Positions 10,251-49,777 of a DNA stretch of 56,715 nt are shown in pieces; position 1 is the stretch's first letter; every line of letters starts with the position of its first letter. The translations under genes and the position numbers were made by a program. The notes under the pieces are model-generated. The model was not told the DNA's origin. It did no database searches and saw only the letters and a program-made list of their open reading frames with translations. Source of the DNA: a virus (taxonomy: Duplodnaviria; Heunggongvirae; Uroviricota; Caudoviricetes); IMG/VR virus record IMGVR_UViG_2622736468_000005; one strand, 5' to 3'.

Positions 10251-10931
10251 TTATCCCTGTCGCCCGATAACCACGACCTTTCCGCCCCCGCCTTCATCAC
10301 GGGTGCTGATGTCCTGGGATATACGGCGGGAGCCAACCAGCATTTCCCCGTAAGGCACCGGCATCGGGTTCCCCTGGGCAATCATGTTATCCAGCGAGGA
10401 AAAGTACGTGTTCTGTCTGCCGTTATCCGTTGCGCGGTAATCCGGTGTTTTTGCCTTCGGGGCCAGCATCTGGGCCACTCCGCCCAGAATCATGCTGGCT
10501 CCAAGTGAAAACAGCATCGTGGTGGCAGAAAAACCACCGGCTGCCAGGGCTGAACCCCATAACGCCATTGATGCCCCGGCAGTGAAGAAAGAGCCCACGA
10601 TGGCTGCCGCCCCCAGCACAATCTGCAGTCCACCCTTTCCGGCCCCGGCCAGTCGCGGCACAATGTGGATGACCGTTCCCTCACCCAGCTGTTCGTGAAG
10701 ACGGGCGTACACCGCCTCCGGTGCCGTGTCATAACCGGCAATACGTATCTGGTACCAGCCTTCGTTCATCTGACGGCGAAAGCCCGGCATCTGCATCGAC
10801 AGGGCGCGAATGGCTTCCGCTGCCGTGTTCACATACAGGCTGAGGCGGCGGCCAAATCGTTGTAAATCCCCGTGAAGGCAGATGCGTGCCAGTGGCGGTG
10901 ACGCCAGACTGAATGCGTTCGTCGTTGCCAT
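10251..10931 (-). CDS. I: tail assembly protein I
   Basis: 226-aa ORF; N-terminus ...LASPPLARICLHGDLQRFGRR... and glycine-rich hydrophobic middle match lambda gpI. Confidence 0.85.
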   Translation of the reverse strand: MATTNAFSLASPPLARICLHGDLQRFGRRLSLYVNTAAEAIRALSMQMPGFRRQMNEGWYQIRIAGYDTAPEAVYARLHEQLGEGTVIHIVPRLAGAGKGGLQIVLGAAAIVGSFFTAGASMALWGSALAAGGFSATTMLFSLGASMILGGVAQMLAPKAKTPDYRATDNGRQNTYFSSLDNMIAQGNPMPVPYGEMLVGSRRISQDISTRDEGGGGKVVVIGRQG

Positions 10932-11572
10932 TTTTCGGAATACCTCTCCCGTTTACTCAGTTGTTCAGGCAGATGGTGAAGCAGCTCACCGTTGCCGCAG
11001 TAAATGGCGGCATGGTTCGGTACCGAAGCACCAAAGCAGCACAGCAGAATATCGCCCGCCTGTGCAGAGGACAGGGGCACCCGGTAAAAGCCGGTGACCG
11101 CCATATTGTCCAGGTACAGGTTCTGGCCGTTGCGCCACCAGTCATCCTCGCGATGAAAATCCGGCATATCAATTCCCGCCAGATGGTATGCATCCCGGAA
11201 CAGCGTGTAACAGTCCGTCACCCCGTGCTCAAAGCGCCGTCCTGTCAGATGTGGCACACAGCGGAATTTATGAATTTCCCCCCGGCAGACCAGCCACCAG
11301 GGCAGTGCGCTTTTTATCTGCAGCCGCCGGTCAGCCTCGCTCAGCCAGGGCAGCTCACCGGGATGACTGTGGACCAGTGCCACAATCTCCCCCTGCATCT
11401 CTGCCCGCAGCCAGTCTTCCGGTGCGATACGAAAATACGCCTCCGGCTCTGCGGAAATATTCACACAAGGGATATACCGCTCCCCCTCCGGCGTGCTTAT
11501 CACGAAGCCGCACGACTCCGCAGGCGCACACCGCCGGGCATGTGCCAGAATCGCTGATTCAGTCTGTGTCAT
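10829..11572 (-). CDS. K: tail assembly protein K (JAB/MPN + NlpC/P60-like)
   Basis: 247-aa ORF; HSHP metal-binding motif and Cys-containing C-terminal half as in lambda gpK; 103-bp overlap with I suggests 3' end uncertain. Confidence 0.8.
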   Translation of the reverse strand: MTQTESAILAHARRCAPAESCGFVISTPEGERYIPCVNISAEPEAYFRIAPEDWLRAEMQGEIVALVHSHPGELPWLSEADRRLQIKSALPWWLVCRGEIHKFRCVPHLTGRRFEHGVTDCYTLFRDAYHLAGIDMPDFHREDDWWRNGQNLYLDNMAVTGFYRVPLSSAQAGDILLCCFGASVPNHAAIYCGNGELLHHLPEQLSKRERYSEKWQRRTHSVWRHRHWHASAFTGIYNDLAAASACM

Positions 11573-11577
11573 TGGAT

Positions 11578-12275
11578 TTACTGCGAAAGTTTGTTAATGG
11601 AAAGGAAACCGCCAAAATTAGCCACCATGCCGCGCATCTCACACCCGCGCATGCACTTGCTGCATCTGTCCTTACGGATATCCGTGGTGGGGTTGTCGAA
11701 CTCATCCGCCACCGCAGGACCGTTATACCCGCATTCATCTCCCCGGTAATCCCACATACAGGTGTTCGCCAGCATGATGCGACCAGGAAACAGCGCCCCG
11801 TCCGTCTCGGTCGGTGTCGCCAGCACAAACGAGGCCGTCATGGCCGTCAGCTCTGACATCTGCTCCACCACCCAGCGGTCGCTCAGCTCCTGCTCCGGGT
11901 CTGCCTCCGGATTGCCCGCAACGAAATTCACCGCATCCAGAAAACGCCCATACACCCGACGGCGGACCACCGTGGCCCCACCAGACTCTGCAGGTCTTCC
12001 GCCATCCCGGTGACCAGACCGAACAGATTGGACACCGTCAGCAACGGTCTGGCACTGCTGCCCTTCCCGCTCATCTGAAAACCGCTGCCGTCAATCGGGT
12101 ATGCCTGATATTGCCGCCCCTGCCAGGTGACCGGCTCCCCTTTTTCATTCAGCTCATTACAGAAAAAATACCGCTCACCGCCCTGCACCGTCAGGTCAAT
12201 TTCCCAGAGCACCACCCGCGGTGACTGCTCTGATTTAACCGACTCGTTCAGACTTTCTTCGTGGATCTCCTGCAT
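11578..12275 (-). pseudogene. L: tail tip protein L, interrupted by a 1-bp frameshift (track ORFs 11928..12275 and 11578..11970)
   Basis: N-terminal ORF matches lambda gpL up to ...GMAEDLQSLVG, C-terminal ORF matches the rest (VRRRVYGRFLDAVNF...FGGFLSINKLSQ); frames differ by one base at a C4 run at 11976..11979. Confidence 0.8.
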
Positions 12276-12284
12276 AAACTTCCA

Positions 12285-12473
12285 CCCATAAAAAAGGGGC
12301 GCAATGCGCCCCGAACAAAAAAGTTCAATTAAAAATCGAAAGCAATGAAGGTAATAAAATGAAAATTAAATCGGCTAATTGCCGTTTGCAGTGACCGGTG
12401 AAAACTATACTTTCACCGATACAGACCATCTGTGAGGGCAGATGGTCTGTATTTGTTCACTCACCAGTTATCA
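12285..12473 (-). ncRNA. candidate 3'UTR-derived sRNA (IpeX-like) downstream of prophage porin gene
   Basis: About 190-nt untranslated segment after porin stop containing a 12-bp perfect hairpin (acagaccatctg...cagatggtctgt) and ending in a strong intrinsic terminator (ggggcgca-ttg-cgcccc + T-run). Confidence 0.3.
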
Positions 12474-13610
12474 TCAGAACTGATAAGTCATACCAACGGC
12501 AACGATATTATCCGTTGCAACACCTGCATCCTGGGTAAACTGACTTTCATCAATCAGATTGATTTTATAATCAACATAGGTGGACATATTTTTATTAAAA
12601 TAATATGTTGTACCCACATCAATATATTTAACCAGATCCTGATTGCCATAGTTTTTACCACCGACAATTATATCCTGAGCACGAGACTGCAGGAACGCCA
12701 GAGATGGACGCAAACCGAAATCAAACTGATACTGTAATACCGCTTCAAAGTTCTGGGCTTTATCTGCCACCCCTTTGTCGCCAAAGGTCGTCATATTCTG
12801 AGTCTCAGAATATATTGTCGCCAGATAAATGTTGTTGGCATCATATTTAAGCCCGGTGCCCCACATCTCAGCGTGTTTACCTTTTGCAACACTGCCGGAA
12901 TCAACAACTGTTTGAGTACCGTTTACTGTTTGCGTACCATTCAGGCCTTTCACCTGATTGTTGGTACGGTCTGCGTTAGTATATGCAGCCACGATACCAA
13001 AACCTTCATATTCATAACTGGCAGAGAAACCATAACCATCACCATTAGCTTCCTGAAGGTCATCACGTTCATTCTTGCCCTGATACTGAGCTGCAAAATT
13101 CAGGCCATCAACAAGTCCAAAGAAATCAGTATTACGGTAAGTCGCCACACCAGAAGTACGGGCAGTCATGAAGTTATCGGTCTGAGTCCAGCCATCACCA
13201 CCAAACTCTGGTAATACGTCGGTATAAGCACCAACATCATACGCAATACCATAGTTACGACCATAATCAATGCTGCCAAAGTCACCGAACTTCAGACCTG
13301 CAAACGCCAGACGAGTCTTATTACCCGCAGCACCGTCTGATTCAGTTTTATTACCAGAGAACTGATATTCCCACTGACCAAAACCGGTCAGTTGATCATT
13401 AATCTGAGTTTCACCTTTAAAGCCCAGACGTGCATATGTCCGATCACCATCATTTCCCTTATCGCTGGAGAAATAATGCAGTGCCGTTACACGTCCATAC
13501 AGATCAAGCTTATTGCTATCTTTGTTATATACTTCCGCAGCCTGCGCACCAGCTGCAAAAATCACAGCCGCAGCCACGGCTGAAAGTGCCACTGTCATTT
13601 TTTTCATCAT
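12474..13610 (-). CDS. general bacterial porin of the OmpC/OmpF/PhoE family (prophage moron)
   Basis: 378-aa ORF with signal peptide ([12 protein letters not shown]), porin signature stretches ([23 protein letters not shown]-terminal ...VAVGMTYQF); AT-rich flanks; inserted between tail genes L and M. Confidence 0.85.
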
Positions 13611-13812: not shown

Positions 13813-14154
13813 CTATGAGATTACCTGCTCAATCGTGCAACTGAAATCACTGTACCGGGCATTATCCGTGACACTCCACTCACGGCACACAACCCTCACC
13901 GTTCGGTTATGTTTCGGCGGTCGCCACAAAAAGGCACGGTAACCACCATGCCACGATAAAAACTCTTCCAGCCATCGCCGGGTCGCCTCATCCGTCACCC
14001 GGAACACCGCCTGAAACGTCTTCAGTCGGGCATTAAGTCCCGTCGGGCGGCGCTGTTCATAACCGTCACCAAACCGTACCCTCGCCACCGACGGTTTCTC
14101 ACTCACCTGCATCCCTTCACGCGGGACCAGATGCAGCGTTTTTATCTCAGCCAC
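13813..14154 (-). CDS. M: minor tail protein M
   Basis: 113-aa ORF with VRFGDGYEQR...GLNA motif as in lambda gpM; position between H and L. Confidence 0.8.
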   Translation of the reverse strand: MAEIKTLHLVPREGMQVSEKPSVARVRFGDGYEQRRPTGLNARLKTFQAVFRVTDEATRRWLEEFLSWHGGYRAFLWRPPKHNRTVRVVCREWSVTDNARYSDFSCTIEQVIS

Positions 14155-17100
14155 TCAGCATTCCTCCGTCACGTCGCATGGACAGCATCACCGCCTGCAC
14201 CCGCTGGTCAATCAGTTGCACAAGGCTGCCCGCAGCTTCCGGCCCTATCTGGCCATTAGTCCCGTCATTCTGAATGGCGATATGGTAGACCGGGGAATAC
14301 ACCAGACCCGCACTGCCGTTCATACTGCCCACCGCTCGCACACCCAGCGAGCCATCCGCCGCCCGGGTCAGGGGCATAATGGCTTCAGGACCGGCCTCCC
14401 CCATAAGTCCCGCCCCTTTTGCAAAGGCAAAGTACGTGGGCGTATCCACAATACTGTTGCTGTACGCACTCAGGTTTGCCGAGGTAAACACGCCGCCTTT
14501 TGCATTGGCCACCGCCCCGCCCAACCAGTCACCAATGCTGCCGAGAAATCCTCCTGCACCGGACATACTATTTGCCGCCGTCCTGATCCCGTTGACAATC
14601 GCGGCATTCATAAGAACTTTTGATATTTCCTGCAGCACTGATGAGGCCCAGCTGCGCCATTCCACTTTATTCCCGTTCAGCACCTCCGTGATGTTATTCA
14701 CCATCCCTGAGATACCCTCCGTCGCAAGTTGTGCTGCCTGTGAGGCGTAATCGGACGCATTATCCACCCAGTTACTGAACCCCTCCTGCAGCCCTTTCTG
14801 CCAGTCCGCACGCTGCACATCCGATTCGGCATAAAAGGCTGCCTGGTCCTTAAGGCGTTCGCTCAGATACTGCGCGTTCTGTGCCCGTGCCTGTCTGTAA
14901 AAATCCTCACTGATATCCCCGGTCTGATACTGAGACTGAAGGTCCGCATCCTTCTGGCGGAAGCTGTCGCGGATCTGCTGCAACTCCCGCATGCGTTCCC
15001 TGGCTCGTTCTCCCTGCCCGTACCCCAGCAGTTCGGCTTCATTTGATGCACGCGCAGCCACATTATCATTCTTCAGGGTCTCTTCCCGGTACCGTAACTG
15101 CTCCCGGATTTTTTGCTGGTCAATCAGGGCCGCATTGCGCAGCAGTTCCTGCTTCTGTATCTCCGTCAGGGTTTTCAGTTCGCCCTGCGCTGTCTGGTAC
15201 TTCAGCTTCGCCAGTTCTGTATTCTGACCCGCCAGTGCCAGTTGCTCTTTCTGCTGCTTCAGTAGCCGGGAAAAACTGTCTTCCGCTTTTTCCGTCTCTG
15301 ATTTTCCACCCCGGGATTTGGGTTTATTCGCCTCGTTATTGCGCCAGGCTTCCAGGGCATTACTGATATAACGTTGTCTCGCCTCCTGATACGGATCACC
15401 CACAAAACCGAGGTCATCCGCCGCATACCCCAGCCGGGCACGCTCTTTTTCTTCCCCTTTCAGTCTGGACAGGGCCAGCTCACGCTCTGTTTTTGTCAGG
15501 GCACTCTGCTGTTTATCATCCAGAGTGGCCTGTGGCAGCCGTAACGGCACATTCACCAGTCCCTGCCGCTGCTGAAGCAGTTCATTACCCTGCCCCAGCA
15601 GACGGTTGAATTCCGTATGCTGACCGTTCATAACCAGCATGGACTGGTACACCTTATTCTGCTCTGCCGCCTGCTGACGAATTAACGCCACACGACGGTC
15701 TTCCAGCCCGGCAAGCACATCCTGAATGGACTGCGCTTTTTCCTGCATCTGTGCCAGACGGGACTGCTCAACGGCAAGCTGCTCTGTTGCCTGAGCAAGC
15801 CCTTCCGTTACGGTCTTCACCGAGGTCAGATGGTTTATCATGAATCCGTCACCGGTCGTCCAGCCCGGGTTCGCCAGAACATACTGATATCCTGCGATTT
15901 TTTCCTGCAGGGATTTCACCCGACTGGCCTGTTCATCAATCAGCCGGTTCTGCTCTGTCAGCGCCGCCCGTGTTCGTCCTTCATTATCTGAGGCTTCAGG
16001 CAAAGACATTGACGGCGTTTTATGCGCGATTTCATCTATCGTCAGTGCATACTGGCGCGCAGACTCCCTGGCCTGCTCCTGATTCTGGTACAGCGTGTAC
16101 CATGCTGCAGCCCCCAGCATCACCAGTCCGGGTACGCCACCAACCAGCCCCAGCGCACCGCTCATCAGACGTGAGCCCACCGCCGTTGTACTGTTCAGCG
16201 CATTCTGGGCGGCGCTTCTGGCAGCAATATTTCTGTTCAGGCGTTCCTGTGTGGCCGCCAGACGGGCCTCTGCAGCAATCTGCATCTCCGTCCCGCGGGC
16301 TGCCGCCACGGCCTGCTGAGCACGGTACACGGCTGCCCTTGCCCGCGCCGTGGCAATCTGCGTTCCCCTGAACTGTGCTTCCGCCAGTGCAACTTCATTA
16401 CGTGCAGCCGTCACAAGTCCTGCCGTGGCAGACATCGCTCCGGAGGCCATATTGCCAAAGTACCGGGCCACCCCGACGGCAACCAGCGCACCCACAGCTG
16501 TTGCCACATTATCAATCTGTCCGGCAACACCGTTCAGCATGCCGGAGAGCGTTTTTGTCACCCCGCTGGCCTCATTCGCACCGCCCACCCAGGCCATAAA
16601 GGCGTTTTCCACCTTTGTGATCCCGTCAGAGACCGTTTCTGGCATGGCGGCATATTCATCACGCAATGTCCCCAGCTGGCTGATTAACGCGGGCACGACT
16701 TTATCCGCCGTCAGTTGACCATCGTCCGCCATCGCCTTCAGATCTTTACGGGCCACGCCCATGCCTGCAGCCAGTGCACGAATGATCCGGTCACCACTTT
16801 CATTGACCGAATTAAATTCCTCACCGCGCAACACACCCTGTGCCAGCGCCTGGCTGAACTGGGTGATCACCGAACCCGCCTCAGCCGTACTGGCACCGGA
16901 GATTTTCAGCCCCGTGGAAATGGCCTCCGTCACCTTCAGTACATCACCGGCACTGTAACCATATTCACGCATCGAGGCAGCCGAACGGGCAAACAGGGCC
17001 GCATTATCCGAAAAAGCGGTACCTGTCCGCTGACTGATATCCATCAGCACTTTCTGTGATGACGAAAATTCATCGGATGACTGTGATGCCTGTTTCAGAC

Positions 17101-17389
17101 GGGCATTCACGGAACTCCACTCATCAGCCAGTGAAATCAGGTGTCCGGTGGCAAAGGCACCGGCAAATGCGCCAGCCATTCCGACAGCCGAAGCGCGGAT
17201 TTCCGTCAACTGGCTGTTCAGTTCTGCCAGGGCACGTCGCTGCTCCCGGGCTGCCGCAGCGGCCTGACGCCCGCCATTCTGCAGGGTCCGGTAATATTCA
17301 CTGCCCATACGGGAAGCCCGCTGGATCTCCGACTGGAATGACTGTGAATTTGCCGAAATTTTGATAATCAGTTCACGTAACGTCGCCAT
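14147..17389 (-). CDS. H: tail tape measure protein H
   Basis: 1080-aa ORF, coiled-coil rich, C-terminus ...NDGTNGQIGPEAA...RRDGGMLSG matches lambda gpH end. Confidence 0.85.
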   Translation of the reverse strand: MATLRELIIKISANSQSFQSEIQRASRMGSEYYRTLQNGGRQAAAAAREQRRALAELNSQLTEIRASAVGMAGAFAGAFATGHLISLADEWSSVNARLKQASQSSDEFSSSQKVLMDISQRTGTAFSDNAALFARSAASMREYGYSAGDVLKVTEAISTGLKISGASTAEAGSVITQFSQALAQGVLRGEEFNSVNESGDRIIRALAAGMGVARKDLKAMADDGQLTADKVVPALISQLGTLRDEYAAMPETVSDGITKVENAFMAWVGGANEASGVTKTLSGMLNGVAGQIDNVATAVGALVAVGVARYFGNMASGAMSATAGLVTAARNEVALAEAQFRGTQIATARARAAVYRAQQAVAAARGTEMQIAAEARLAATQERLNRNIAARSAAQNALNSTTAVGSRLMSGALGLVGGVPGLVMLGAAAWYTLYQNQEQARESARQYALTIDEIAHKTPSMSLPEASDNEGRTRAALTEQNRLIDEQASRVKSLQEKIAGYQYVLANPGWTTGDGFMINHLTSVKTVTEGLAQATEQLAVEQSRLAQMQEKAQSIQDVLAGLEDRRVALIRQQAAEQNKVYQSMLVMNGQHTEFNRLLGQGNELLQQRQGLVNVPLRLPQATLDDKQQSALTKTERELALSRLKGEEKERARLGYAADDLGFVGDPYQEARQRYISNALEAWRNNEANKPKSRGGKSETEKAEDSFSRLLKQQKEQLALAGQNTELAKLKYQTAQGELKTLTEIQKQELLRNAALIDQQKIREQLRYREETLKNDNVAARASNEAELLGYGQGERARERMRELQQIRDSFRQKDADLQSQYQTGDISEDFYRQARAQNAQYLSERLKDQAAFYAESDVQRADWQKGLQEGFSNWVDNASDYASQAAQLATEGISGMVNNITEVLNGNKVEWRSWASSVLQEISKVLMNAAIVNGIRTAANSMSGAGGFLGSIGDWLGGAVANAKGGVFTSANLSAYSNSIVDTPTYFAFAKGAGLMGEAGPEAIMPLTRAADGSLGVRAVGSMNGSAGLVYSPVYHIAIQNDGTNGQIGPEAAGSLVQLIDQRVQAVMLSMRRDGGMLSG

Positions 17390-17436: not shown

Positions 17437-17750
17437 TCATGACTGTGCTGCAAAGCTCAGCGCGTCTTCCAGCGCCGCAAACGGATCCACCTCCGGCTTA
17501 TCCTCATCCTCGCCCCAGCAGAGCATGGCGTCCTTCAGTGCAACATTCATCCCCTGTGCCCCGAAAACCGCTTTCACGATCTGTGCATTACGGATATCCC
17601 GCGCTCATCACCCAGCGGGGACACCCTGTCAAACTCCATCCACATCATCGCCTCGCTCGCACTCAGGCTGTGCCGCAGTTCGGATAAGGTGCGCCCCAGA
17701 CGGAGCGCAAGTCGCATCAGAAAGCGAATTTCCGGGCGGGCTACTTTTTT
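17437..17750 (-). CDS. T: tail assembly chaperone T portion of the G-T fusion (reached by -1 frameshift), itself interrupted by an extra 1-bp frameshift near 17598..17600
   Basis: Reading in -1 frame from the slippery site gives KKVARPEIRFLMRLALRLGRTLSELRHSLSASEAMMWMEFDRVSPLGDERG then a premature stop at 17574..17576; a third frame continues QIVKAVFGAQGMNVALKDAMLCWGEDEDKPEVDPFAALEDALSFAAQS-stop. Confidence 0.55.
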
Positions 17751-18115
17751 CTGGCCGACTCTGCATCAGCGATCAGTTCCAGTGCCTGACGCAGCAACCG
17801 GGCATGTACCGGACCATAGACGGCCAGCACCTGCTCACGGTCGTCCGGAGTGAACACCCGTTGCAGGTCAGTATCACACAGGACATCGCAGAACAGCGTC
17901 ACATCCGCTTCCAGGTTACGGCGGGTTTTCGCCACCACCGACAGGGTATCGTCATCCTCTCCATCACCATTGAGCACTTCCTGCCACAGATACCAGGCCT
18001 CTGCCGAAGGCTCCCGCAGCACCACGCTGACATTTCCCCATTCCGGCACCTTCACCGTTTTATGACGGAACCCTGACAGTCTGGCCAGCGCCAGTGTTTT
18101 CAGATCTTTTGCCAT
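17741..18115 (-). CDS. G: tail assembly chaperone G
   Basis: 124-aa ORF between V and H ending ...AESARKK-stop with slippery heptamer at its 3' end. Confidence 0.7.
   Translation of the reverse strand: MAKDLKTLALARLSGFRHKTVKVPEWGNVSVVLREPSAEAWYLWQEVLNGDGEDDDTLSVVAKTRRNLEADVTLFCDVLCDTDLQRVFTPDDREQVLAVYGPVHARLLRQALELIADAESARKK
17744..17750 (-). promoter_or_regulatory. programmed -1 ribosomal frameshift site (A AAA AAG) for the G-T fusion
   Basis: Minus-strand AGA AAA AAG TAG at end of G; classic X XXY YYZ heptamer; -1 frame is open and encodes a gpT-like sequence. Confidence 0.65.
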
Positions 18116-18120: not shown

Positions 18121-18837
18121 TTATCCGCCCGCACCATTAACCGTTACTGTACACGCATCAGAGGTAATGCTCTGCGGCTGTTCTGCAGAATCCGTTACCT
18201 CGCAGGTATAAGCCCCCTTATCACCTGACTGCGTATTGGCTTTACTGAAAGTGTCAGTAGTCTGTCCCTCTACCGGCTGACCATCCTTCTTCCAGGCGTG
18301 TTTATAAGGCGGCGTTCCCCCGTTGACACTGACTGACATTGTCAGCAGCGCACCGGTATTCACGGTAAGTGTCTTCTCCAGATTTTTCACAAACGCCAGC
18401 GGTACCACATAGGACACCGGTTTACCCTTCAGGCGAAGTGAAAACGTTGCAGCCACCACGCCGTTGGTACCGGATGACCAGGTGTGCTGACGCACTTCCG
18501 CCAGGAACTTAAAGCCCTTACCGGACGGAAACTGCACCTTAAACGCATACACCGTGTCATTGTCATAGGCATCACGCAGGGCGTTCTGGGCCTGATTCAG
18601 ATAAAAATTACCCGACATGGAAATCTCGGACGACGCCCCCAGACCGTTGATGTTCTCCTGCTCTGTGGAGCAGAGCGTGGTCACATCAATATCCTGTTTC
18701 TGCCCGGCGGTGAACTGGACTTCCTTGATGGTGCAGTCCAGGCGCAGATATTCCGCCTTATCCATAGTTTCAGCAGTCGCCGGGGCAGATGAAATCATCA
18801 CCTGCGTCAGCTGTGAGCGTTCATACAAAGCAGACAT
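18121..18837 (-). CDS. V: major tail protein with C-terminal Ig-like domain (gpV-like)
   Basis: 238-aa ORF immediately upstream of G; C-terminal ~80 aa Ig-like (GAYTCEVTDSAEQP) as in many major tail proteins. Confidence 0.7.
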   Translation of the reverse strand: MSALYERSQLTQVMISSAPATAETMDKAEYLRLDCTIKEVQFTAGQKQDIDVTTLCSTEQENINGLGASSEISMSGNFYLNQAQNALRDAYDNDTVYAFKVQFPSGKGFKFLAEVRQHTWSSGTNGVVAATFSLRLKGKPVSYVVPLAFVKNLEKTLTVNTGALLTMSVSVNGGTPPYKHAWKKDGQPVEGQTTDTFSKANTQSGDKGAYTCEVTDSAEQPQSITSDACTVTVNGAGG

Positions 18838-19691: not shown

Positions 19692-20038
19692 TTTTCCCCT
19701 CCCAGCCGACAGAGAATTTCCAGACGCCCACCAGTCGCATCCGGCACGGGCAGCCCGACAACGTTCAGGATCCGGTCACGCCATGGACCACTCAGCACAT
19801 GAAGTCGTGACGCTGCCGTGATTTCCCGGCCGGACTGACCGCGCACCCAGATGCGGATTTCCGCCTGCGCCATTTCCGCACCGGACTGCATCCGCTCCCG
19901 GCTGCTCCTGCCACGGATATCCGCATGAATTTTCCCGCATGACACCCATTCTTCCGTCATTTCTCCGGCAGCATTACGGGTTAACACCGGGTTCAGAACA
20001 CTTATCATCTGTGTCAGACGACCTGCAGATATTGCCAT
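19688..20038 (-). CDS. head-tail adaptor / head closure protein
   Basis: 116-aa ORF in conserved position. Confidence 0.45.
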   Translation of the reverse strand: MAISAGRLTQMISVLNPVLTRNAAGEMTEEWVSCGKIHADIRGRSSRERMQSGAEMAQAEIRIWVRGQSGREITAASRLHVLSGPWRDRILNVVGLPVPDATGGRLEILCRLGGEK

Positions 20039-20047
20039 TCCCCCTCC

Positions 20048-20374
20048 TCATAACACCGTCGGACAACGCAAATCGTAAATCAGCACGGAAACAGAAAACG
20101 GCAGCTCCCCCTGAATCAGTTCTTCCCGCTCCGCAAGATCCGGATTCCGGTACAGCATCCCGGTCAGTCGCATGGCAGCCCCCTTCATCCGGGTTAATGC
20201 CTCGCCCGGGATCAGTTCACCGTCCTCACGAATCACTTTATCCCGGCTGCCCTGAATGTAGGCCAGCAGCACGGCGGTAGCCTGACGAACCTTGTCCATC
20301 AGCATGTCATCATCCGCGTCATGGTCGACACGCAGATGTGCCTTGATCTCTTCCAGTGTCAGTAATGCCGTCAT
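20048..20374 (-). CDS. head-tail connector protein (gp6-like)
   Basis: 108-aa ORF immediately after portal; stop of portal overlaps its start. Confidence 0.45.
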   Translation of the reverse strand: MTALLTLEEIKAHLRVDHDADDDMLMDKVRQATAVLLAYIQGSRDKVIREDGELIPGEALTRMKGAAMRLTGMLYRNPDLAEREELIQGELPFSVSVLIYDLRCPTVL

Positions 20375-31433: not shown

Positions 31434-33302
31434 TTATGATGATGCCGGTGCATTTATCTCCAGCACCAGACTTTCTATCTCAACGCCATACGCTGCATTT
31501 TTTGTAACATCCGTCAGCGTCAGCGCATTCAGCCCCAGTGTCAGACTGTCTTTTATGACCTGGAATGCCGGGCCAACCAGTCCATTCAGTTTCGGAGTAA
31601 CCGTGGCACTGCCGGCGGTGAACACCAGCTCCAGCGTCTGCCAGTCGTTACTGTAATTCCCGAACTCGCCCAACTTTGTGTTTCCGGCTTTCTTGTGATG
31701 CATCAGATTCAGTTTGCCGTCTGTGGTCTGGGTGAAGAACGACATCAGGAACGGGTTACCAGTCCCGGTCATCGCCACGACGTCAGGTAACGCTACATCG
31801 GTATACAGATAAATTCCCAGACCGAACTGGTTGTTGGTCAGTGCGCCTGACAGTCGAAACTTACAGCTCAGTCTGCCACCCCGTGTCAGCAGGGAGACTG
31901 CGTCATCCACCGGGCGCGTCAGGGACCAGGCTTTATTGCTCTGCTTGGCGATCTTAAATACACCATCTGACAACTGAATTCCGCCATTCTTAATGCTCCA
32001 GCCCTGCGCAGCAGCATCTCCGGCTGTCGGCAACAGGGAGATTGTGCGTACGGATGCATCTTCAGACGGCCCCGATGGCGTGTCGCCGCCGGGCGAGGGT
32101 TTGATTTCCGGTGCCTTACCACTGATGAAGGCTGAGGTGCGACCGGCTACGTTCAGAATAGCAGTTGCCATACGATCCGGAATAATGCTCCTGCGCGCCC
32201 ATGAACTGAAATGTGTCGGGCGGTTTGATGATACCTGGTTTCCATTCGTTCTCGATGCCGCACCGTAATATCCTGATGCCGGAATATCCGGATCTTCTGC
32301 CGGTGCGTTAGTGGCGGTATTGACGCCGTTACCGTCTGTCATGAAGGGCACAAAATAAACGCCCTCACTCTCCCTGTTTTTATACCCTCCGTACACGGTG
32401 TCGTACTGGGTAGCGTATGTATTTTTCCAGTAATACGTCGTGTCACCACAAATCCACGGCACATCTGCAGCACTGCCACCATGACACTGCGCGTTAAACA
32501 CAGTGAGGTCAGCACGAAACTGCTTCAGCATGGCTGTAAACAGCGCAGGTTGCTGTGCGTAGGTGGCGGCGCTCATGTCAAACTCTCCCTGCATCCAGCA
32601 CACCGCCAGCAACACATTTTTCGGGTTCTTCTGTAATGCAGCTTTAGTGCGCGCAATCAGGTCCTGATATAACGGTTTACCCACACCCCAGCGTGCCGAA
32701 TCCTGGCTGGCCCCCGTGTCCGCACTGAATGTCCCCTCCGCGCCCTGGGTGAATGCCGAACCACCACGACAGCATGGTACCAGCAGGATCCCCGCGTTAT
32801 TCGGGATATACGGAAGCAGTTTTTTGGCAATATGTAAGCCCTGGCCGACACAGCCGTACTGCCCTTTGCTCAGGTCTGCCTTCGGATGATTCAGCGTACT
32901 CATATCCTGCACATCATGCAGGCAGTGGTCGGCCGGAATAATATCGTTATATCTGCAGGCAGCCCCACCCGGCGTCACTGTACTGCGGCGCGCCAGCTGT
33001 TTAATGCGCGGATCCGGAGCATCGTATGAATCCGGCAGCGGAAGCCCTTCACCGTAAGCCATGGCATTGGACTGCCCGGCCAGTACGATGACGTAGTACC
33101 ACTCCGGCTCAGTTGCACCACTGACGACCACATCACCTTCTGCTGCAATCGCCTGCATCAGGGTATAAGGGGTTATGGCCACCGGACTACCAAACGGCTG
33201 CCAGCCCTCTTTCAGTTTATGTGTCAGCTTTTCCGCAAGATCTGACGGCGACGCCGCCCTGACAACATCATAGTGTTTAAATGCCATGGTTCTTTCCACC
33301 AT
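31434..33302 (-). CDS. prophage-encoded sialate O-acetylesterase-like protein (NanS-p / YjhS family, SGNH-type)
   Basis: 622-aa ORF with VIVLAGQSNAMAYG esterase motif; located between tRNA/Q region and lysis genes, as nanS-p is in Stx-type prophages. Confidence 0.65.
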   Translation of the reverse strand: MVERTMAFKHYDVVRAASPSDLAEKLTHKLKEGWQPFGSPVAITPYTLMQAIAAEGDVVVSGATEPEWYYVIVLAGQSNAMAYGEGLPLPDSYDAPDPRIKQLARRSTVTPGGAACRYNDIIPADHCLHDVQDMSTLNHPKADLSKGQYGCVGQGLHIAKKLLPYIPNNAGILLVPCCRGGSAFTQGAEGTFSADTGASQDSARWGVGKPLYQDLIARTKAALQKNPKNVLLAVCWMQGEFDMSAATYAQQPALFTAMLKQFRADLTVFNAQCHGGSAADVPWICGDTTYYWKNTYATQYDTVYGGYKNRESEGVYFVPFMTDGNGVNTATNAPAEDPDIPASGYYGAASRTNGNQVSSNRPTHFSSWARRSIIPDRMATAILNVAGRTSAFISGKAPEIKPSPGGDTPSGPSEDASVRTISLLPTAGDAAAQGWSIKNGGIQLSDGVFKIAKQSNKAWSLTRPVDDAVSLLTRGGRLSCKFRLSGALTNNQFGLGIYLYTDVALPDVVAMTGTGNPFLMSFFTQTTDGKLNLMHHKKAGNTKLGEFGNYSNDWQTLELVFTAGSATVTPKLNGLVGPAFQVIKDSLTLGLNALTLTDVTKNAAYGVEIESLVLEINAPASS

Positions 33303-33547
33303 CTGAAAAATGATTCTTTAAAATACCTGACATGTAATACAGAAAAAACACAAAACCATACCTTAAATAAAAACCTCATCATCAAGCAGATATGCATGGA
33401 TAAACTACAAGACGAGATATAAACCACCCTGCATTTAAATAAACAATAAACAACATCAGAAAAATAATTCTGCTCTATGGTTTACAATCAAAAATATCAT
33501 TTATACTTTTCAGAACATCACCAGCAAGGCATAAACAAGGAAACTAA

Positions 33548-33883
33548 ATGAAGTGGATTGTGATTGATACAGTTATCCAGCCATCATGCGGAATATCTTT
33601 TTCAGTCATATGGAGTAAAATAAAATTAATAATCTGGTATCAATCGGATGCTTTCTTACCTCCTGAAAGTATATTTACACTGACTCACACAGGCATCATG
33701 CTCAATAACAAAGTGCTACCTGTAACCATTTACAACGTAGTACCATTCAATAAAACATTCTGGAATTTAATCAAAAACAGCCAGGAATGCCCTACAAATA
33801 CAGATAACGTATTGAATGAATGCTTTAATAACCGTTGCACTCTGCAAATATGTCCTTATGGGCTAAAACAACAAAGTCCATAA
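33548..33883 (+). CDS. hypothetical Cys-containing protein, very AT-rich orphan gene
   Basis: 111-aa ORF; upstream TTTACA-17 bp-TATACT promoter-like sequence and AAGGA RBS; no recognisable family. Confidence 0.35.
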
Positions 33884-33918
33884 GCAGTTTACTCACATCT
33901 GACAAAATCAATATAAAC

Positions 33919-34140
33919 AGCCCCTCCGGAGAGGGGCTGGAGAGTGGCGCTATGTGCCATTGCATGGTGCCGGGTGCCTCCCGGTGAATTCAGTACCAGC
34001 ACCTGAATCCGCGATTATCCCATATACCTACTCGCTGATTACCCCTCCGCACAGGGGGATTCACCATGCGAAATTTTTTAACAAACTTCCCGCCGGCCAG
34101 ACAATAATCGCCAGCCTGAATTATGAGCAACGTGGCATTT
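33919..34140. repeat. repeat element copy A (~220 bp) beginning with perfect 20-bp palindrome agcccctccggagaggggct
   Basis: Shares palindrome and several conserved blocks (gcatggtgcc..cctcccggt.aattcag, gggggattcaccatgcga, ttttaacaaa, cagacaat) with copy B; compensatory changes in stems. Confidence 0.55.
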
Positions 34141-34381
34141 TACGGGAAAACTGTTTTCTGCAGTAAAAAGGCCCGCCGGAGCGAGCCTGGAAGGATAGCG
34201 GTCATGTGATGCCGGTTTCCCGGTAACTCAGCATCGGTATCTGAGTCAACGTTTTCTCTACTGGGTCATTTCCGATACGTTCCGCCTTCCGGCAGACTTT
34301 CATCACGTCAGAAAATATAGCACCCTGAGTAACAGGACAGTACTCAGAATTCAGGAAACTGTGACACATCCTGCACAGAAA

Positions 34382-34600
34382 AGCCCCTCCGGAGAGGGGC
34401 TGAAGTATAGCCTAATTTCTGTCTGTCGCATGGTGCCAGGGGCCTCCCGGTAAATTCAGCCTGTCTACTGAATTTGCATGTTCTCTGGATCATACACTTT
34501 GCCAGATGCCCCGCCGCTGAGGGGGATTCACCATGCGATGTAATTTTTAACAAATTCTCCGGCAGCCAGACAATCATCAAGCTGTGGAATTGTGAGGTAT
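34382..34600. repeat. repeat element copy B (paralog of 33919..34140)
   Basis: Same palindrome and conserved blocks; hairpin aaattcag-cctgtcta-ctgaattt. Confidence 0.55.
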
Positions 34601-34749
34601 TTAAAAATTTCAACGGGTAACTGATACCCTGCTAATCGCCTGATGCTTTCTTTTTCAGCAACGGGAAAGCAACAACCACACACCCGCCACCAAAACACCA
34701 TCAGACAGCACCGACATTATCCGGCTGCTGAAGTCCACCATCACCACCA

Positions 34750-34826
34750 GAAACAACAGGAGTGCAACCACAGCTGCTTAGAAGGCAATTGCTCTGTCCG
34801 GCTGAGCTAACAACGCATGATGCAGA
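34750..34826 (-). other. degenerate tRNA-Arg(UCU)-like remnant
   Basis: 5' half has tRNA-like D-arm and CCTTCTAAG anticodon loop; T-arm and acceptor 3' strand do not pair. Confidence 0.3.
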
Positions 34827-34829
34827 TAA

Positions 34830-34906
34830 TGGACCGCCATCGGGGACTTGAACCCCGCGCAGCCAGCTTCGAAGGCTGGCGCTCTATCCCGATGAGCTAA
34901 TGGCGG
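34830..34906 (-). tRNA. tRNA-Arg (anticodon read as TCG)
   Basis: 77-nt cloverleaf on minus strand: acceptor CCGCCAT/ATGGCGG, D-arm GCTCATCGGGATAGAGC, anticodon loop CTTCGAA, T-arm CGGGGTTCAAGTCCCCG, 3' TCCA. Confidence 0.7.
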
Positions 34907-34913
34907 TATGTGA

Positions 34914-34989
34914 TGGTGGCCCTTGCTGGATTTGAACCAGCGACCTGGCGATTATGAGTCGCTCGCTCTCACCACTGAGCTAAAGGGCC
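34914..34989 (-). tRNA. tRNA-Ile2 (anticodon CAT, ileX/ileZ-like) or tRNA-Met
   Basis: 76-nt minus-strand sequence GGCCCTTTAGCTCAGTGGTGAGAGCGAGCGACTCATAATCGCCAGGTCGCTGGTTCAAATCCAGCAAGGGCCACCA; 7-bp acceptor stem, CTCATAA loop. Confidence 0.8.
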
Positions 34990-35038
34990 GGAAGCAGAAT
35001 AATAATGGTGCGTAATTAATTCTGCAATCTCATCCGTT

Positions 35039-36088
35039 TCAAACGATTAAATCCTGAACTTCCCTGACTGTCTGCTCAAAACGTCCGGTCTCCAGTTCAA
35101 CGCCAATCGCACGACGCCCGAGCGCCAGTGCAGCTTTTACCGTTGAACCTGAGCCCATAAAAAAATCTGCAACCAGGTCACCCGGACGACTGCTTGCGCT
35201 GATTATCTGCTGCAGCATTTCTGCCGGTTTTTCGCACGGATGTTTCCCGGGATAGAACTGCACCGGTTTATGTGTCCACACATCCGTGTACGGCACCTGC
35301 GCCGTCACACCAAAATACCGCCGCAGATGCTTATATTCACTCTGCAGCTCCACATACTGCCGGTTCAGTGACGTATACGTATCCACCAGCTGGTGGTGGG
35401 GCTTTTCCAGTTCACCGCGCTGATGTTTCTCTTCTGCCACCCGGGCAAACAGCGACTGTAATTTCAGATAATCGCTTTCGTTCGGTAGCTGCCACTGACT
35501 GGCACTGAACCAGTGCGACACCATGTTTTTCTTTCCTGTGGCATCTGCAATCTGTTTTGCCGTTATCCCCAGGGCCGCGCGCGCATCACGAAAGTAAGAA
35601 ATCAGCGGGGCCATCACATGCTGTTTCAGTGCACTGCCCTTCGCCGCATACCCGGCATCTTTCGGACGATACGGCCCCTGATAATGTTCCGCGAACAGAA
35701 TGCGCTCTGTGGCGGGGAAATACGCCCGCAGGCTTTCCTTGTTGCATCCGTTCCAGCGTCCGGACGGCTTCGCCCAGATAATATGGTTCAGCACACTGAA
35801 GCGTTCACGCATCATGATTTCGATATCAGATGCCAGGCGATGACCACAGAACAGGTAAAGACTTCCGGCAGGTTTCAGCACCCGCCAGAACTGCGCCAGA
35901 CACTGGTCCAGCCACTTCAGGTAATCATCGTCGCCCTTCCACTGGTTATCCCAGCCCTCAGGCTTCACTTTAAAGTACGGCGGGTCCGTGACTATCAGGT
36001 CAACAGAATTTTCGGGTAACGACCGGATAAATTCCAGGCAGTCGGCGTTGATTAACTCACAACTGGATATTTTTACAGTATTAAGCAT
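35039..36088 (-). CDS. orphan DNA methyltransferase (N6-adenine/N4-cytosine type, DPPY motif)
   Basis: 349-aa ORF with catalytic DPPY (LIVTDPPYF) and C-terminal SAM-binding FxGxG (FFMGSGST); no adjacent restriction enzyme. Confidence 0.8.
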   Translation of the reverse strand: MLNTVKISSCELINADCLEFIRSLPENSVDLIVTDPPYFKVKPEGWDNQWKGDDDYLKWLDQCLAQFWRVLKPAGSLYLFCGHRLASDIEIMMRERFSVLNHIIWAKPSGRWNGCNKESLRAYFPATERILFAEHYQGPYRPKDAGYAAKGSALKQHVMAPLISYFRDARAALGITAKQIADATGKKNMVSHWFSASQWQLPNESDYLKLQSLFARVAEEKHQRGELEKPHHQLVDTYTSLNRQYVELQSEYKHLRRYFGVTAQVPYTDVWTHKPVQFYPGKHPCEKPAEMLQQIISASSRPGDLVADFFMGSGSTVKAALALGRRAIGVELETGRFEQTVREVQDLIV

Positions 36089-36224
36089 GGATCATTAAGC
36101 CTGTCTCTGATAGGCTCATTCTGCTTTTGCGCAAAGCAGTGGGCCTGAGGTTTGCTTGTGAACCCAACGCATGAGCAGATGGCTGGTGGGTGCCCCTAAC
36201 ACCCACCAGCCGCCCATTTACCAC

Positions 36225-36255
36225 AAATAAAAAAGCCTTCACTGCGGAAGGCGTC
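36225..36255 (-). terminator. intrinsic terminator (gccttc-cgcagt-gaaggc + T6)
   Basis: Minus-strand hairpin followed by ttttttatttg, between small ORF and methyltransferase gene. Confidence 0.5.
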
Positions 36256-36436
36256 TGTAACAACCGAACTGATAGTCTGCCAGACCCGCCATAACCAGCT
36301 GGGTCAGTATTAACTGGCAGCGTTCGCGTGAAAGGTAAGTATTCTGCGCTATCTCCCCGACTGTCGCCGGTTCGGTAACGCTTAATTCATTAAACACCAC
36401 TCTGGCGGTTTCTGTCATATCCTGCTGTTTTAGCAT
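36239..36436 (-). CDS. hypothetical small protein downstream of Q (start at internal Met)
   Basis: About 65 aa (MLKQQDMTETARVVFNELSV...); may instead be non-coding late leader. Confidence 0.25.
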   Translation of the reverse strand: MLKQQDMTETARVVFNELSVTEPATVGEIAQNTYLSRERCQLILTQLVMAGLADYQFGCYRRLPQ

Positions 36437-36564
36437 GTCTTTTTCCCTTTTCCGGTTAACGTGACACACCAATAACTCTTGTCGAAAAAGCCAGCAAGCT
36501 GAAAGACAGGTATTCACCGCCACCAGCGCGTTTACTGTACTGACGCGATTTCAGTCATAAAAAA

Positions 36565-36590
36565 CCCGCCAGGCGGCGGGGTGTAAAAAA
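36565..36590 (-). terminator. candidate tR'-like intrinsic terminator just downstream of Q
   Basis: Minus-strand cccgcc-gcctg-gcggg followed by tttttta about 75-100 nt after Q stop; upstream TTGATT...TAAATT promoter-like sequence could be pR'. Confidence 0.4.
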
Positions 36591-36662
36591 TCTTCTAACG
36601 TCAGGCATAAAACGCCCATCGTTAGAGCAAATTTACCACAGATTCGGGAAAAATCAACAACA

Positions 36663-37484
36663 CTATCGCGTTACCCTCTTTAACTGCCGCTCCGCCCATG
36701 CCTCTTCAATGTCAAACCGAACCACCAACGTATCGTAAAAGCGTTTCACTGATTTTTTCCACGTATCAAGCGTGATAGCACTCGTCACTTTGCATATGGC
36801 ATTAAATGCCTCCGTTGATGGCAGCCTTTCACAGCCACGACCACCACAACGCTGGCAATCTCTGATAACAGGCATACCACGTTTTACCGACTCTTCACGA
36901 TGAATGGCGACACCACGCCCACGGCAATCCTTACAGGCGGTGGAAACCTCACCCTTTCCGCCACACTCCGGACAGGCAACTTTTACCACCTCCCTGACTT
37001 TTTTCCATTCTTCCCAGTAAGACGGATACACGCCTTTTGTGCACTTTGCCCACACTGGTGGCTTACCATCCGGATACTGGATCTTGTTTGTAAAAACCTC
37101 GCTTTCAATAAATTTTTTTCCGTGACAGCAGGGGCACTGTTTTTTGCTCGCCGCGCTACGGGCATAATCTTCAAACGCATACGAAGCCATAATGCGCATC
37201 ACTACCGGTTTTATTTCTGCCGGAAGTTTTCTCAACGCCGCCACACGATCGCACCGACTGAGTGCATAATCTGCCAGTAATTCTGTTGCCCGCGCCCTGT
37301 CATTCATACTGATGCCCATTTTCCCCAGGAACGCAGAAACCCCCATCTCAGCCCGATTCTGTGTCATGCCCTGCGCGGCCATCACATCAGTGATACTCAG
37401 CGCATCTTTTGACGTTGAGGCCGATGCATCGGTCAGGCCAGGGGATTTTGGGGAGTAGTATTTCGGTAAATCTTCCAGTTTCAT
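36663..37484 (-). CDS. Q: late-gene antiterminator Q (zinc-binding type)
   Basis: 273-aa ORF with multiple CxxC pairs (CPCCHGK, CPECGGKG, CKDCRGRG, CQRCGGRG); positioned after rusA and before late operon. Confidence 0.7.
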   Translation of the reverse strand: MKLEDLPKYYSPKSPGLTDASASTSKDALSITDVMAAQGMTQNRAEMGVSAFLGKMGISMNDRARATELLADYALSRCDRVAALRKLPAEIKPVVMRIMASYAFEDYARSAASKKQCPCCHGKKFIESEVFTNKIQYPDGKPPVWAKCTKGVYPSYWEEWKKVREVVKVACPECGGKGEVSTACKDCRGRGVAIHREESVKRGMPVIRDCQRCGGRGCERLPSTEAFNAICKVTSAITLDTWKKSVKRFYDTLVVRFDIEEAWAERQLKRVTR

Positions 37485-37855
37485 TTTTTGACCTGCTCTT
37501 CATGCATTATGGGGTAAATCTTCACCCCCATACGTCCACCAGATACTGGCTGACCACGAACGATATTGATTTCATCAAACTGCTCATCGTCCATTAACAC
37601 TCCCGCATGCGTCAGCGCATCCAGCGGTGCTTTCAGGATATTGTCCAGGTCGCGACGACGCTTATCCGGTGGCTCTGCAATCACCTTTATCGCCAGCCTT
37701 CCGGACAGGCTTAATTTCAGCCGCTGCTGGCGAACAATAAGCGCCACAGCCCGGCGATAACGCTTTCCCTCCTCCGAGATAAAATATGTGCTGCCACGGC
37801 GTCGCCAGTAAGTGTTCACCGTCGGCGGGTAAGGTAAAACCAAATCTATGAGCAT
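37481..37855 (-). CDS. rusA: Holliday junction resolvase RusA
   Basis: 124-aa ORF; N-terminus MLIDLVLPYPPTVNTYWRRRG and RRRDLDNILKAPLDAL match RusA family. Confidence 0.85.
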   Translation of the reverse strand: MLIDLVLPYPPTVNTYWRRRGSTYFISEEGKRYRRAVALIVRQQRLKLSLSGRLAIKVIAEPPDKRRRDLDNILKAPLDALTHAGVLMDDEQFDEINIVRGQPVSGGRMGVKIYPIMHEEQVKK

Positions 37856-38132
37856 CAGTCACCTCTTTTACCCAAGCACGCCAGTTGCAAAGGCGTGATC
37901 AAGAAAACGAAAAATTAAATCAACCTGAGAACCATGCTTTTCTTCGAACGCCAGAGGATCCGCATGAAGCTCGTTGTGATGCTCCCGACACAGCGGTAGC
38001 GTGAAAATATCGTGAGATTTTGTCCCCATTCCGCCCTGACCATGACCAATCAGGTGATGGGGATCGTCGGCTGGCTTATGAACCGCCCCGGGAATCCTGG
38101 AGACTAAACTTCCTGAGAAAGAGGTAAACAGG

Positions 38133-38459
38133 ATGACTAAAAATACTCGTTTTTCCCCCGAAGTCCGTCAACGGGCAGTCCGTATGGTTCTGGAAAGTCA
38201 GAGCGAATATGACTCACAATGGGCGACAATTTGTTCCATTGCTCCAAAGATTGGCTGTACGCCGGAGACTCTGCGTGTCTGGGTTCGCCAGCATGAGCGG
38301 GATACCGGGGGCGGTGATGGAGGGCTCACCACCGCTGAACGTCAGCGTCTGAAAGAGCTGGAGCGTGAAAATCGTGAACTGCGCCGCAGTAACGATATCC
38401 TTCGCCAGGCTTCCGCTTATTTTGCGAAGGCGGAGTTCGACCGCCTCTGGAAAAAATGA
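38133..38459 (+). CDS. IS629 transposase OrfA (HTH)
   Basis: 108-aa [25 protein letters not shown]...; slippery A AAA AAT at its end. Confidence 0.85.
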
Positions 38460-39346
38460 TGCCACTGCTGGATAAGCTGCGTGAGCAGTACGGGGTCGGA
38501 CCGCTATGCAGCGAACTGCATATTGCCCCGTCAACGTATTACCACTGTCAGCAACAGCGACATCATCCGGATAAACGCAGTGCCCGTGCGCAGCGCGATG
38601 ACTGGCTGAAGAAAGAGATACAGCGCGTATACGATGAAAATCACAAGGTATACGGTGTGCGTAAAGTCTGGCGTCAGTTGTTACGGGAAGGTATCAGAGT
38701 GGCCAGATGCACTGTGGCACGTCTCATGGCGGTTATGGGACTTGCCGGTGTTCTCCGGGGTAAAAAGGTCCGTACGACCATCAGCCGGAAAGCCGTTGCC
38801 GCAGGCGACCGCGTAAACCGTCAGTTCGTGGCAGAACGACCTGACCAGCTGTGGGTGGCTGATTTTACTTACGTCAGCACATGGCAGGGCTTCGTCTATG
38901 TGGCGTTCATCATTGATGTGTTTGCCGGATACATCGTGGGGTGGCGGGTCTCATCGTCCATGGAAACGACATTCGTGCTGGATGCACTGGAGCAGGCGTT
39001 ATGGGCCCGTCGACCGTCCGGCACGGTCCATCACAGTGATAAAGGTTCTCAGTATGTATCGCTGGCCTACACACAGCGGCTTAAGGAAGCCGGATTACTG
39101 GCATCAACAGGAAGTACAGGCGACTCGTATGACAACGCGATGGCGGAGAGCATCAATGGTCTTTACAAAGCGGAGGTAATACACCGTAAGAGCTGGAAAA
39201 ACCGTGCAGAAGTGGAACTGGCCACACTCACGTGGGTGGACTGGTATAACAATCGACGATTGCTGGAAAGGCTGGGCCATACTCCTCCGGCAGAAGCAGA
39301 AAAAGCTTATTATGCTTCCATCGGAAACGATGATCTGGCAGCCTGA
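38456..39346 (+). CDS. IS629 transposase OrfB (DDE integrase domain)
   Basis: 296-aa ORF overlapping orfA in -1 frame; DDE-type catalytic core. Confidence 0.85.
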
Positions 39347-40229
39347 GTTCACAGATAAAACACTCTCCAGGAAACCCGGGGCGGTTCACTTACCACAACA
39401 CGCACACGGCTGTGTCTTCACCCAGCGTGTGTATTTCTCGTTAACCCAGCGGCGACGTTTAGGTCGTTTCATGAAAGATTCCGGAGACTCAGGATCAACG
39501 GCAATGCTGACCACCGTCTCTTCCTGTGGCGGGTTTTGCTGGTGGGCGTGAGGCAGCGGCGCAAGATTTTTTGTGCGCTGCTTCAGTATGCTGGTGGCGG
39601 TCTGCTCTCCCGGTACGATGTCGCTTTCACGGTACATTGAGCGGATTTTTTCCGCACGCAACCCCAGCGAACGACGTAATACCGCTTCCGGTAGCGCGTC
39701 CGCCACCTGATTGCGGACCGCCCACCAGGATAATTCAGCCAGCGATAATTCCCGTTCCTGCGAGCCATTCATTGCATGGCGTATGACGTCAATCATCCAT
39801 GCAGACAGGTTTTGGTGAGCAAGTTGCCCGAGTGATTCGGAGGTCTGGTCGCGCAGCTGGTTGTCGCAGTGCCAGCACAACACCATTGCGCCGGTACCAT
39901 AACGGTGAATGACGGTTTCACTGTGGTGATAATCGCCGTGTGGCCACTGGCAGGATTTAACATGGCGCAGTAACCAATCAGACAATGCGCCAGCGCCACC
40001 AGCAGCACGAATCACTCGTTCGTCGCTGAAAAATGGCAGTAATGATTTATCCTCCGCCAGCGGCTGGCGAACGGCAGGAACGACCCCGGACGGCAGATTA
40101 CGCATGCTTTTCGGTTCCGGCTCCACCAGTACCCGGGTATTGTGGAATACCGGCATGGATTCACGGCCCGGCTTAACGATCACCAGCCCGAGTTCCGGTA
40201 CCAGAACAGGTCGAAGTAATACCCGCACG

Positions 40230-40514: not shown

Positions 40515-40558
40515 TGGCGCTGCAGGTTGCCAGTTGTTCAGGCTGGCTCACGTATTAT

Positions 40559-40735: not shown

Positions 40736-40865
40736 CAACAGAATCCTTCCAGATAAATAGCACTCCCCTGTTCGGGGTCCATCCCTCTTCTCCCTGCGCG
40801 CTACTTAAGTATTTTTGATTCTATTCTGGCACCGTCCAAAACTTCAAACACGTTGAAAATAAAAA

Positions 40866-40886: not shown

Positions 40887-40891
40887 TATAC

Positions 40892-43750: not shown

Positions 43751-43757
43751 TTACTCC

Positions 43758-44021: not shown

Positions 44022-44022
44022 A

Positions 44023-49519: not shown

Positions 49520-49777
49520 GAATCAACTCCGATGCATTTGGTGTGTTAGCCTTGAATCCAACAGGTAAGCCGTCGGTTGGATTCGGGTAAATATCAGGCC
49601 GGAGTTCATGAGGTGTAACCTCGAAATTCGTTACTTCAGCAACACGTAATGCTTTTTCAGGGCTGAATCTTTCATAGCCCCCAGCACTCGACTTACATGC
49701 ACCTGAGATAAACCCGTTAGCTTCCCAAACTGTAGCTGGGTGATATGTTTCTCTTTTAAATAGTCTCTTAAGTTCAT
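49503..49777 (-). CDS. Cro-like / YdaS-like HTH protein, apparently frameshifted at a C5 run at 49678..49682
   Basis: Frame 1: MNLRDYLKEKHITQLQFGKLTGLSQVHVSRVLG...; adding one G gives ...VLGGYERFSPEKALRVAEVTNFEVTPHELRPDIYP... with the expected HTH-then-LRPD layout; divergent from repressor gene. Confidence 0.45.

Follow-up and report, generated by a model that had tools for sequence, protein, structure and literature searches.

A probable homopolymer consensus error in the T reading frame of a G-T tail assembly chaperone locus from Escherichia coli MRE600

The G and T genes

The stretch of DNA analysed here (the window, 56,715 nucleotides) corresponds to CP014197.1:2525549-2582263 from E. coli MRE600; the CP014197.1 loci matched it with 100.000% identity over 22,586 and 13,893 bases. 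Accession CP014197 is the chromosome of this strain (PMC12851939). The window carries the late genes of a lambdoid prophage on the minus strand, and the tail region showed the following features:

18121..18837, minus strand: V-like major tail subunit gene, upstream neighbour of G (open reading frame; annotation of identical genes in relatives)
17741..18115, minus strand: G, tail assembly chaperone, 124 aa, intact (open reading frame and Pfam PF06222)
17744..17750, minus strand: slippery heptamer A AAA AAG directly before the G stop codon, X XXY YYZ register verified
17574..17743, minus strand: first part of T, in the -1 frame after the slip, with a premature TGA stop at 17574..17576
17598..17600: lesion in T, a run of three C (GGG on the coding strand) that is C4 in homologues; equals CP014197.1:2543146-2543148
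17437..17597, minus strand: second part of T, where gpT continues in the third frame up to the true T stop at 17437..17439
17717, minus strand: ATG start of T as a standalone open reading frame in the manner of PGAP
14147..17389, minus strand: gene for the tape measure protein (1080 aa), next gene downstream of T (open reading frame)

The order major tail subunit, G, T (17437..17717) and tape measure, all on the minus strand, was the same in related prophages, as was the annotation of these genes. The G product matched the Phage_TAC_1 profile (PF06222) over its entire length (206 bits, E = 1.7e-61, profile positions 1-124 of 124), and a gene identical to G is annotated by PGAP as 'phage tail assembly chaperone' in relatives. 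The 3' end of G reads GCC AGA AAA AAG TAG, with the TAG at 17741..17743. The initial annotation had placed a canonical -1 slippery site here, followed by a gpT-like sequence in the -1 frame that runs into a stop at 17574..17576, and we could confirm the site together with its coordinates and frames. The heptamer of the window was in the correct register; AAAAAAGTAG was found in 16 of 16 homologous loci examined and was invariant in an alignment spanning G and T, and AAAAAAG-TAG was likewise kept in every one of the 16 loci. A search for RNA structure 3' of the slippery site that might stimulate frameshifting gave nothing better than shuffled sequence (z = -0.31).

In the lambda-type system the tape measure protein is bound by G and by the G portion of G-T, and the major tail protein is brought in by the T domain. 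Ribosomes translating G of the prophage would occasionally slip back by one base at A AAA AAG and continue into T, producing a G-T fusion. With its programmed -1 frameshift the G/G-T pair is an ordinary tail assembly chaperone of the lambda type and is nothing new in itself. What is unusual is the state of T.

A second break within T

After the -1 slip the reading is VARPEIRFLMRLALRLGRTLSELRHSLSASEAMMWMEFDRVSPLGDERGISVMHRS, which is followed by the TGA at 17574..17576; up to this codon the -1 frame reads ...KKVARPEIRFLMRLALRLGRTLSELRHSLSASEAMMWMEFDRVSPLGDERGISVMHRS. The third frame runs DIRNAQIVKAVFGAQG...SFAAQS to 17437..17439; written out, it continues DIRNAQIVKAVFGAQGMNVALKDAMLCWGEDEDKPEVDPFAALEDALSFAAQS to this stop. 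When both parts were compared with the Phage_tail_T profile (PF06223), the first covered positions 1-22 only, at 23.6 bits and hence below the cut-off of 25.9, and the second covered positions 23-71 of 73 at 32.7 bits. The extra, unprogrammed frameshift in T that had been noted from the sequence is therefore clearly visible in the domain match: the break falls between adjacent profile positions, as would be expected for an indel of one base. Addition of one G to the GGG at 17598..17600 (C3 on the plus strand) gave a G-T fusion of 226 aa with a near-complete Phage_tail_T domain (positions 1-71 of 73, 66.6 bits), so that the proposal that T is recovered if the run is C4 held both for the repaired fusion and for the homologues, which do have C4.

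In other words, the -1 frame of the deposited sequence lacks a complete gpT domain, which is complete in an independent assembly, GCA_901482365.1 (see below). The slip junction of G-T would be represented by the peptide VARPEIR, intact T would contain ...VSPLGDERGDIR..., and truncated T would end in ...GISVMHR. A protein look-up for a called gene equal to the exact truncated T fragment of 47 aa returned none. In a system of this type, a G-T protein without most of T would be non-functional.

The T run in homologous loci

The run in T was G4 in 14 of the 16 loci examined. Across 781 nt that take in both G and T, the most similar complete genomes of E. coli differed from the window solely by the fourth G. 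The G-T regions of related prophages had been named as the place to check the break, and in these the short arrangement was almost absent: of the 1,251 records from complete E. coli genomes in which this T gene is present, one had the short allele.

This sole other carrier is one copy in the unrelated genome of E. coli 2013C-3513 (NZ_CP027555.1), in which T is annotated by PGAP as 'phage tail assembly protein T, frameshifted'. The T region of 2013C-3513 showed three substitutions over the 781 nt and the G protein had a different accession. Since the haplotype, the substitutions and the G protein all set this copy apart, its short T allele arose independently. In the same locus (L004) T lies at 19944-20224, and terL (10834-12494) is frameshifted at another C-run; the poly-C tract of its portal gene is C5. 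The assembly of 2013C-3513 may be another one with homopolymer errors. A literature search for the method by which 2013C-3513 was sequenced gave nothing usable.

The source assembly and a sister assembly

The MRE600 genome was assembled from PacBio RS II P5-C3 reads only, using HGAP 2.0, Celera Assembler and Quiver, at 184x; the genome paper mentions neither short-read polishing nor Illumina data, does not discuss prophages, and equates MRE600 with NCTC 8164 and ATCC 29417 (PMC4825418). NZ_CP014197.1 was absent from the RefSeq-derived collection that we used, which would fit an exclusion for assembly quality.

In the public collection just two contigs, both from MRE600-type assemblies, encode exactly the tape measure protein of the prophage, and look-ups with the identical sequences of this protein, the portal and the tail fibre led to the same two assemblies, CP014197.1 and GCA_901482365.1 (contig CABEEG010000004.1). 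A 622-aa esterase open reading frame with a wrong start and two widespread proteins did not lead to the MRE600 contigs. In the 8.6-kb host flank beside the prophage GCA_901482365.1 was identical to CP014197.1, whereas two other strains differed by 70 and 118 substitutions. Because of this identical flank we take GCA_901482365.1 to represent the same strain or an isogenic one and refer to it as the sister assembly. To go by the sequence identity, the strain is probably NCTC 8164; a literature search for GCA_901482365 and NCTC 8164 gave nothing usable.

Window and sister assembly were compared over 46.8 kb (positions 1-32954 and 42824-56715). Apart from one substitution and five places at which the window has lost a single base, they were identical; over these 46.8 kb there were no insertions and no differences in A/T runs. 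At the T site the sister assembly has C4, and the longer run in T was also carried by seven further draft assemblies. The genes terL (553 aa), T and L (232 aa) were called intact in the sister assembly and in the seven drafts, which have an identical portal protein.

The only substitution between the two MRE600-type assemblies lies at 52480, outside any homopolymer. CP014197.1 has T at this position, and the sister assembly and seven other loci have G. The two stocks may therefore differ slightly for real.

Companion lesions

Besides the lesion in T, the comparison yielded four deletions:

11976..11979: lesion in L, C5 to C4; equals CP014197.1:2537524-2537527; C5 in the sister assembly and elsewhere
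26564..26566: lesion in terL, G4 to G3; equals CP014197.1:2552112-2552114; G4 in the sister assembly
27664..27669: intergenic lesion between terS and an HNH gene, C7 to C6; equals CP014197.1:2553212-2553217; C7 in the sister assembly
49678..49682: lesion in a cro/YdaS-like gene, C6 to C5; equals CP014197.1:2575226-2575230; C6 in the sister assembly and two other strains

The remark that terL and L suffered from the same class of lesion as T was borne out, since each lacks one base of a G/C run. The minor tail gene L is split into 11928..12275 and 11578..11970, with one piece matching positions 3-74 of the Pfam profile Phage_tail_L and the other positions 75-206. The lesion in terL leaves 25169..26527 and an upstream piece; in some relatives the run reads GGGT. 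Among complete E. coli genomes, the short allele of L was found in 0 of 2,652 records and that of terL in 0 of 1,255. A cro-like gene of 91 aa was called in three loci (L012, L013 and L015) and was missing from the calls for CP014197 (L014), where the frame break is visible.

Other features of the prophage

A deletion of 31 bp was found at 48598, in iteron-like repeats (CGTGAC...) of an O/DnaT-like replication gene. It causes a frameshift, is common to both MRE600-type assemblies and is absent from two related strains. As this deletion is real and frameshifting, the prophage probably has a defect in replication, independently of whether T is intact.

A DUF968 gene is interrupted by an IS3-family element and retains profile positions 1-106 of 171. 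The coordinates involved are 38133-39346 on the plus strand and 39386-40228 on the minus strand, and the element encodes an OrfA of 108 aa with an HTH_Tnp_1 domain and an OrfB of 296 aa with an rve domain. The insertion falls into 32955-42823, outside the part compared with the sister assembly.

The portal gene (20371-22956, minus strand, 861 aa) is intact. Its poly-C tract at 21606-21611 is C6, the common allele in complete E. coli genomes. In five relatives (L001, L002, L004, L005 and L006) the tract is C5 and the portal gene is called 'frameshifted' by PGAP, which may reflect either an error that recurs or a genuine polymorphism in length. A 162-bp (54-aa) repeat (PVPRDGRDYDP...VKEAVSHI) occurs about four times in tandem at ~20837-21430, within the C-terminal half of the portal reading frame, and such a repeat-bearing extension is unusual for a portal protein.

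Between the tail genes M and L there is a full-length Gram-negative porin gene (12474-13610, minus strand; Porin_1, 378 aa). The same arrangement was present in strain PS2Canimalfeces12, where the gene is annotated as ompC; it looks like a moron within the tail operon. At 34914-34989 on the minus strand ARAGORN predicted a tRNA-Met (CAT). At the equivalent position in related prophages PGAP called a tRNA-Ile, which presumably reflects a lysidine-modified CAT anticodon. No stx genes were found between the tRNAs and a SASA-family esterase gene.

Origin of the break in T

The explanation that we favour lies in the way the sequence was produced. Very probably the extra frameshift in T is a residual homopolymer consensus error in the PacBio-only sequence CP014197.1, and thus has a technical and not a biological cause. 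One G would have been dropped from a GGGG run in T during the PacBio-only assembly (P5-C3, HGAP 2.0, Quiver), and the breaks in terL, L, the cro-like gene and the intergenic C-run would have the same consensus-error origin. Three observations led us to this view, namely that the differences are deletions in G/C runs with almost no substitutions, that the long alleles restore open reading frames and that this class of error is documented.

All five differences of length between the window and the sister assembly are deletions, and all of them are located in G/C runs with a true length of 4-7. Runs of at least four A/T were about twice as frequent in number as runs of at least four G/C (522 vs 251), so the chance that five of five would hit G/C runs under uniform placement is ~0.004. 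If indels make up ~10% of the spontaneous mutations in wild-type E. coli, a share in line with mutation-accumulation studies, five or more indels among six events would have a probability of ~5.5e-5. In terL, T, L and the cro-like gene the long alleles restore the open reading frames and match those of relatives. Precedents are available: in a genome assembled with HGAP and Quiver at 262x, a further 205 indels were removed by Illumina polishing, 'nearly all... within G or C homopolymer regions' (PMC4832174), and homopolymers have been described as a known weak point of Quiver, such that apparent frameshifts in them are worth examining (PMC4853030).

Two further ideas were considered and rejected. 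A shortening of every G/C run in the assembly of the window does not apply, given that the C6 tract of the portal gene (21606-21611) is the common intact allele. Nor is the sister assembly likely to be the wrong one, because its errors would have to restore four open reading frames and at the same time agree with seven other assemblies.

The consensus-error explanation is not free of difficulties. A Quiver error at 184x would usually involve runs longer than 3-4 bases, and a rate of five errors in 47 kb corresponds to ~QV40, well under the QV50 or better expected at this depth. Poorer polishing of the prophage through ambiguous mapping of reads among similar prophages might account for this, though such an account is speculative. 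Along the 8.6-kb host flank there were zero differences; about one would be expected at the rate of the prophage (P ~0.4), and the flank is therefore uninformative. In addition, the substitution at 52480 is atypical of a PacBio consensus error, which hints that the stocks may differ a little.

The main alternative is that the one-base deletion is real in the MRE600 laboratory stock that was sequenced, and that a prophage in decay has only very recently lost T, terL, L and the cro-like gene to pseudogene formation. If so, G-T without most of the T domain would leave the prophage unable to build tails. Real decay is not implausible, since the prophage carries a real lesion common to both assemblies, the 31-bp deletion in the O/DnaT-like replication gene, which has nothing to do with homopolymers, as well as the IS3-family insertion in the DUF968 gene; both are silent on the T site itself. 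The private substitution at 52480 likewise suggests a slight difference between stocks, and Quiver at 184x should normally resolve runs of four. On the other hand, five indels against a single substitution, all of them deletions, all in G/C runs and one of them intergenic, fit a technical signature better. The lesion in T is not common to the independent assembly or to relatives: the sister assembly, seven drafts with near-identical prophages and 1,250 of the 1,251 E. coli records have the long allele. Moreover, runs of three to four bases are poor substrates for slippage in vivo. A private mutation in the sequenced stock is thus unlikely, although the shortness of the runs, the excess of errors, the substitution at 52480 and the other lesions of the prophage keep it from being negligible.

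A more specific form of this alternative can be imagined, in which all five G/C-run deletions are real in the MRE600 stock and a burst of homopolymer slippage silenced the prophage there, while the culture-collection stock kept it intact. Such a burst might result, for example, from a transient defect in mismatch repair or from selection against spontaneous induction. We consider this scenario rather improbable.

The last explanation, that the second frameshift is real and that either slippage of the ribosome or of the RNA polymerase bypasses it as a second recoding event or T works as two polypeptides, seems to us hardly tenable: the downstream frame of T is indeed open and undamaged, but an error or a lesion of recent date would leave it so just as well, while CGC GGG ATA does not have the form of a slippery heptamer, transcriptional slippage needs a longer run than three G, stable RNA structure is lacking even near the programmed site, the short arrangement is not conserved, as its single occurrence in 1,251 records indicates, and the same type of lesion is present in unrelated genes and in intergenic DNA of the window. 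The working chaperone implied by this explanation, with a peptide spanning ...GDERGDIRNAQIVK..., is accordingly extremely improbable.

Significance of the break for the MRE600 genome

If the breaks are consensus errors, as we believe, the matter is one of data quality. CP014197.1 is the reference for MRE600, which is the standard strain for the preparation of ribosomes and tRNA. Within a stretch of 57 kb at least four genes look like pseudogenes only through probable homopolymer errors. Annotators of this prophage would be misled by them, as would anyone who counts 'frameshifted' phage genes in assemblies based on long reads only. The comparison also offers a test that can be applied when the reads are not at hand: a sister assembly that reveals several deletions in G/C runs but no or almost no substitutions points to an artefact.

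Comparison with known systems

The lesions of the window resemble the errors known from assemblies made with HGAP and Quiver in several respects. The source is a sequence derived from long reads only, the changes are one-base differences in the length of G/C runs, they produce apparent frameshifts in conserved genes, and a second, independently made assembly of this strain or an isogenic one does not have them. They differ from these errors in that the affected runs are short (true length 4-7; four in the case of T) and in that the density, five in 47 kb, is above that usually reported for such a high coverage.

The prophage of 2013C-3513 shares with the window the GGG allele in the same family of T genes and a terL gene that is also frameshifted at a C-run. 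However, its terL lesion is located at a different run and its haplotype is different, too.

With regard to the chaperone genes themselves, phage lambda is the obvious point of reference. Xu et al. (Mol Cell, 2004) are said to have found that gpG and gpGT arise by a programmed -1 translational frameshift which is conserved in long-tailed double-stranded DNA phages. The prophage departs from lambda in two points. Its heptamer is A AAA AAG, the heptamer of dnaX, whereas that of lambda is G GGA AAG; and in the deposited sequence the loss of one base, not seen in homologues, breaks the T frame behind profile position 22. The organisation shared with lambda G/GT is as follows: two overlapping open reading frames lie between the gene for the major tail protein and the tape measure gene, the upstream one encodes a full Phage_TAC_1 domain (PF06222), the downstream one encodes Phage_tail_T (PF06223) in the -1 frame, and a heptamer of the type X XXY YYZ is located at the very end of G.
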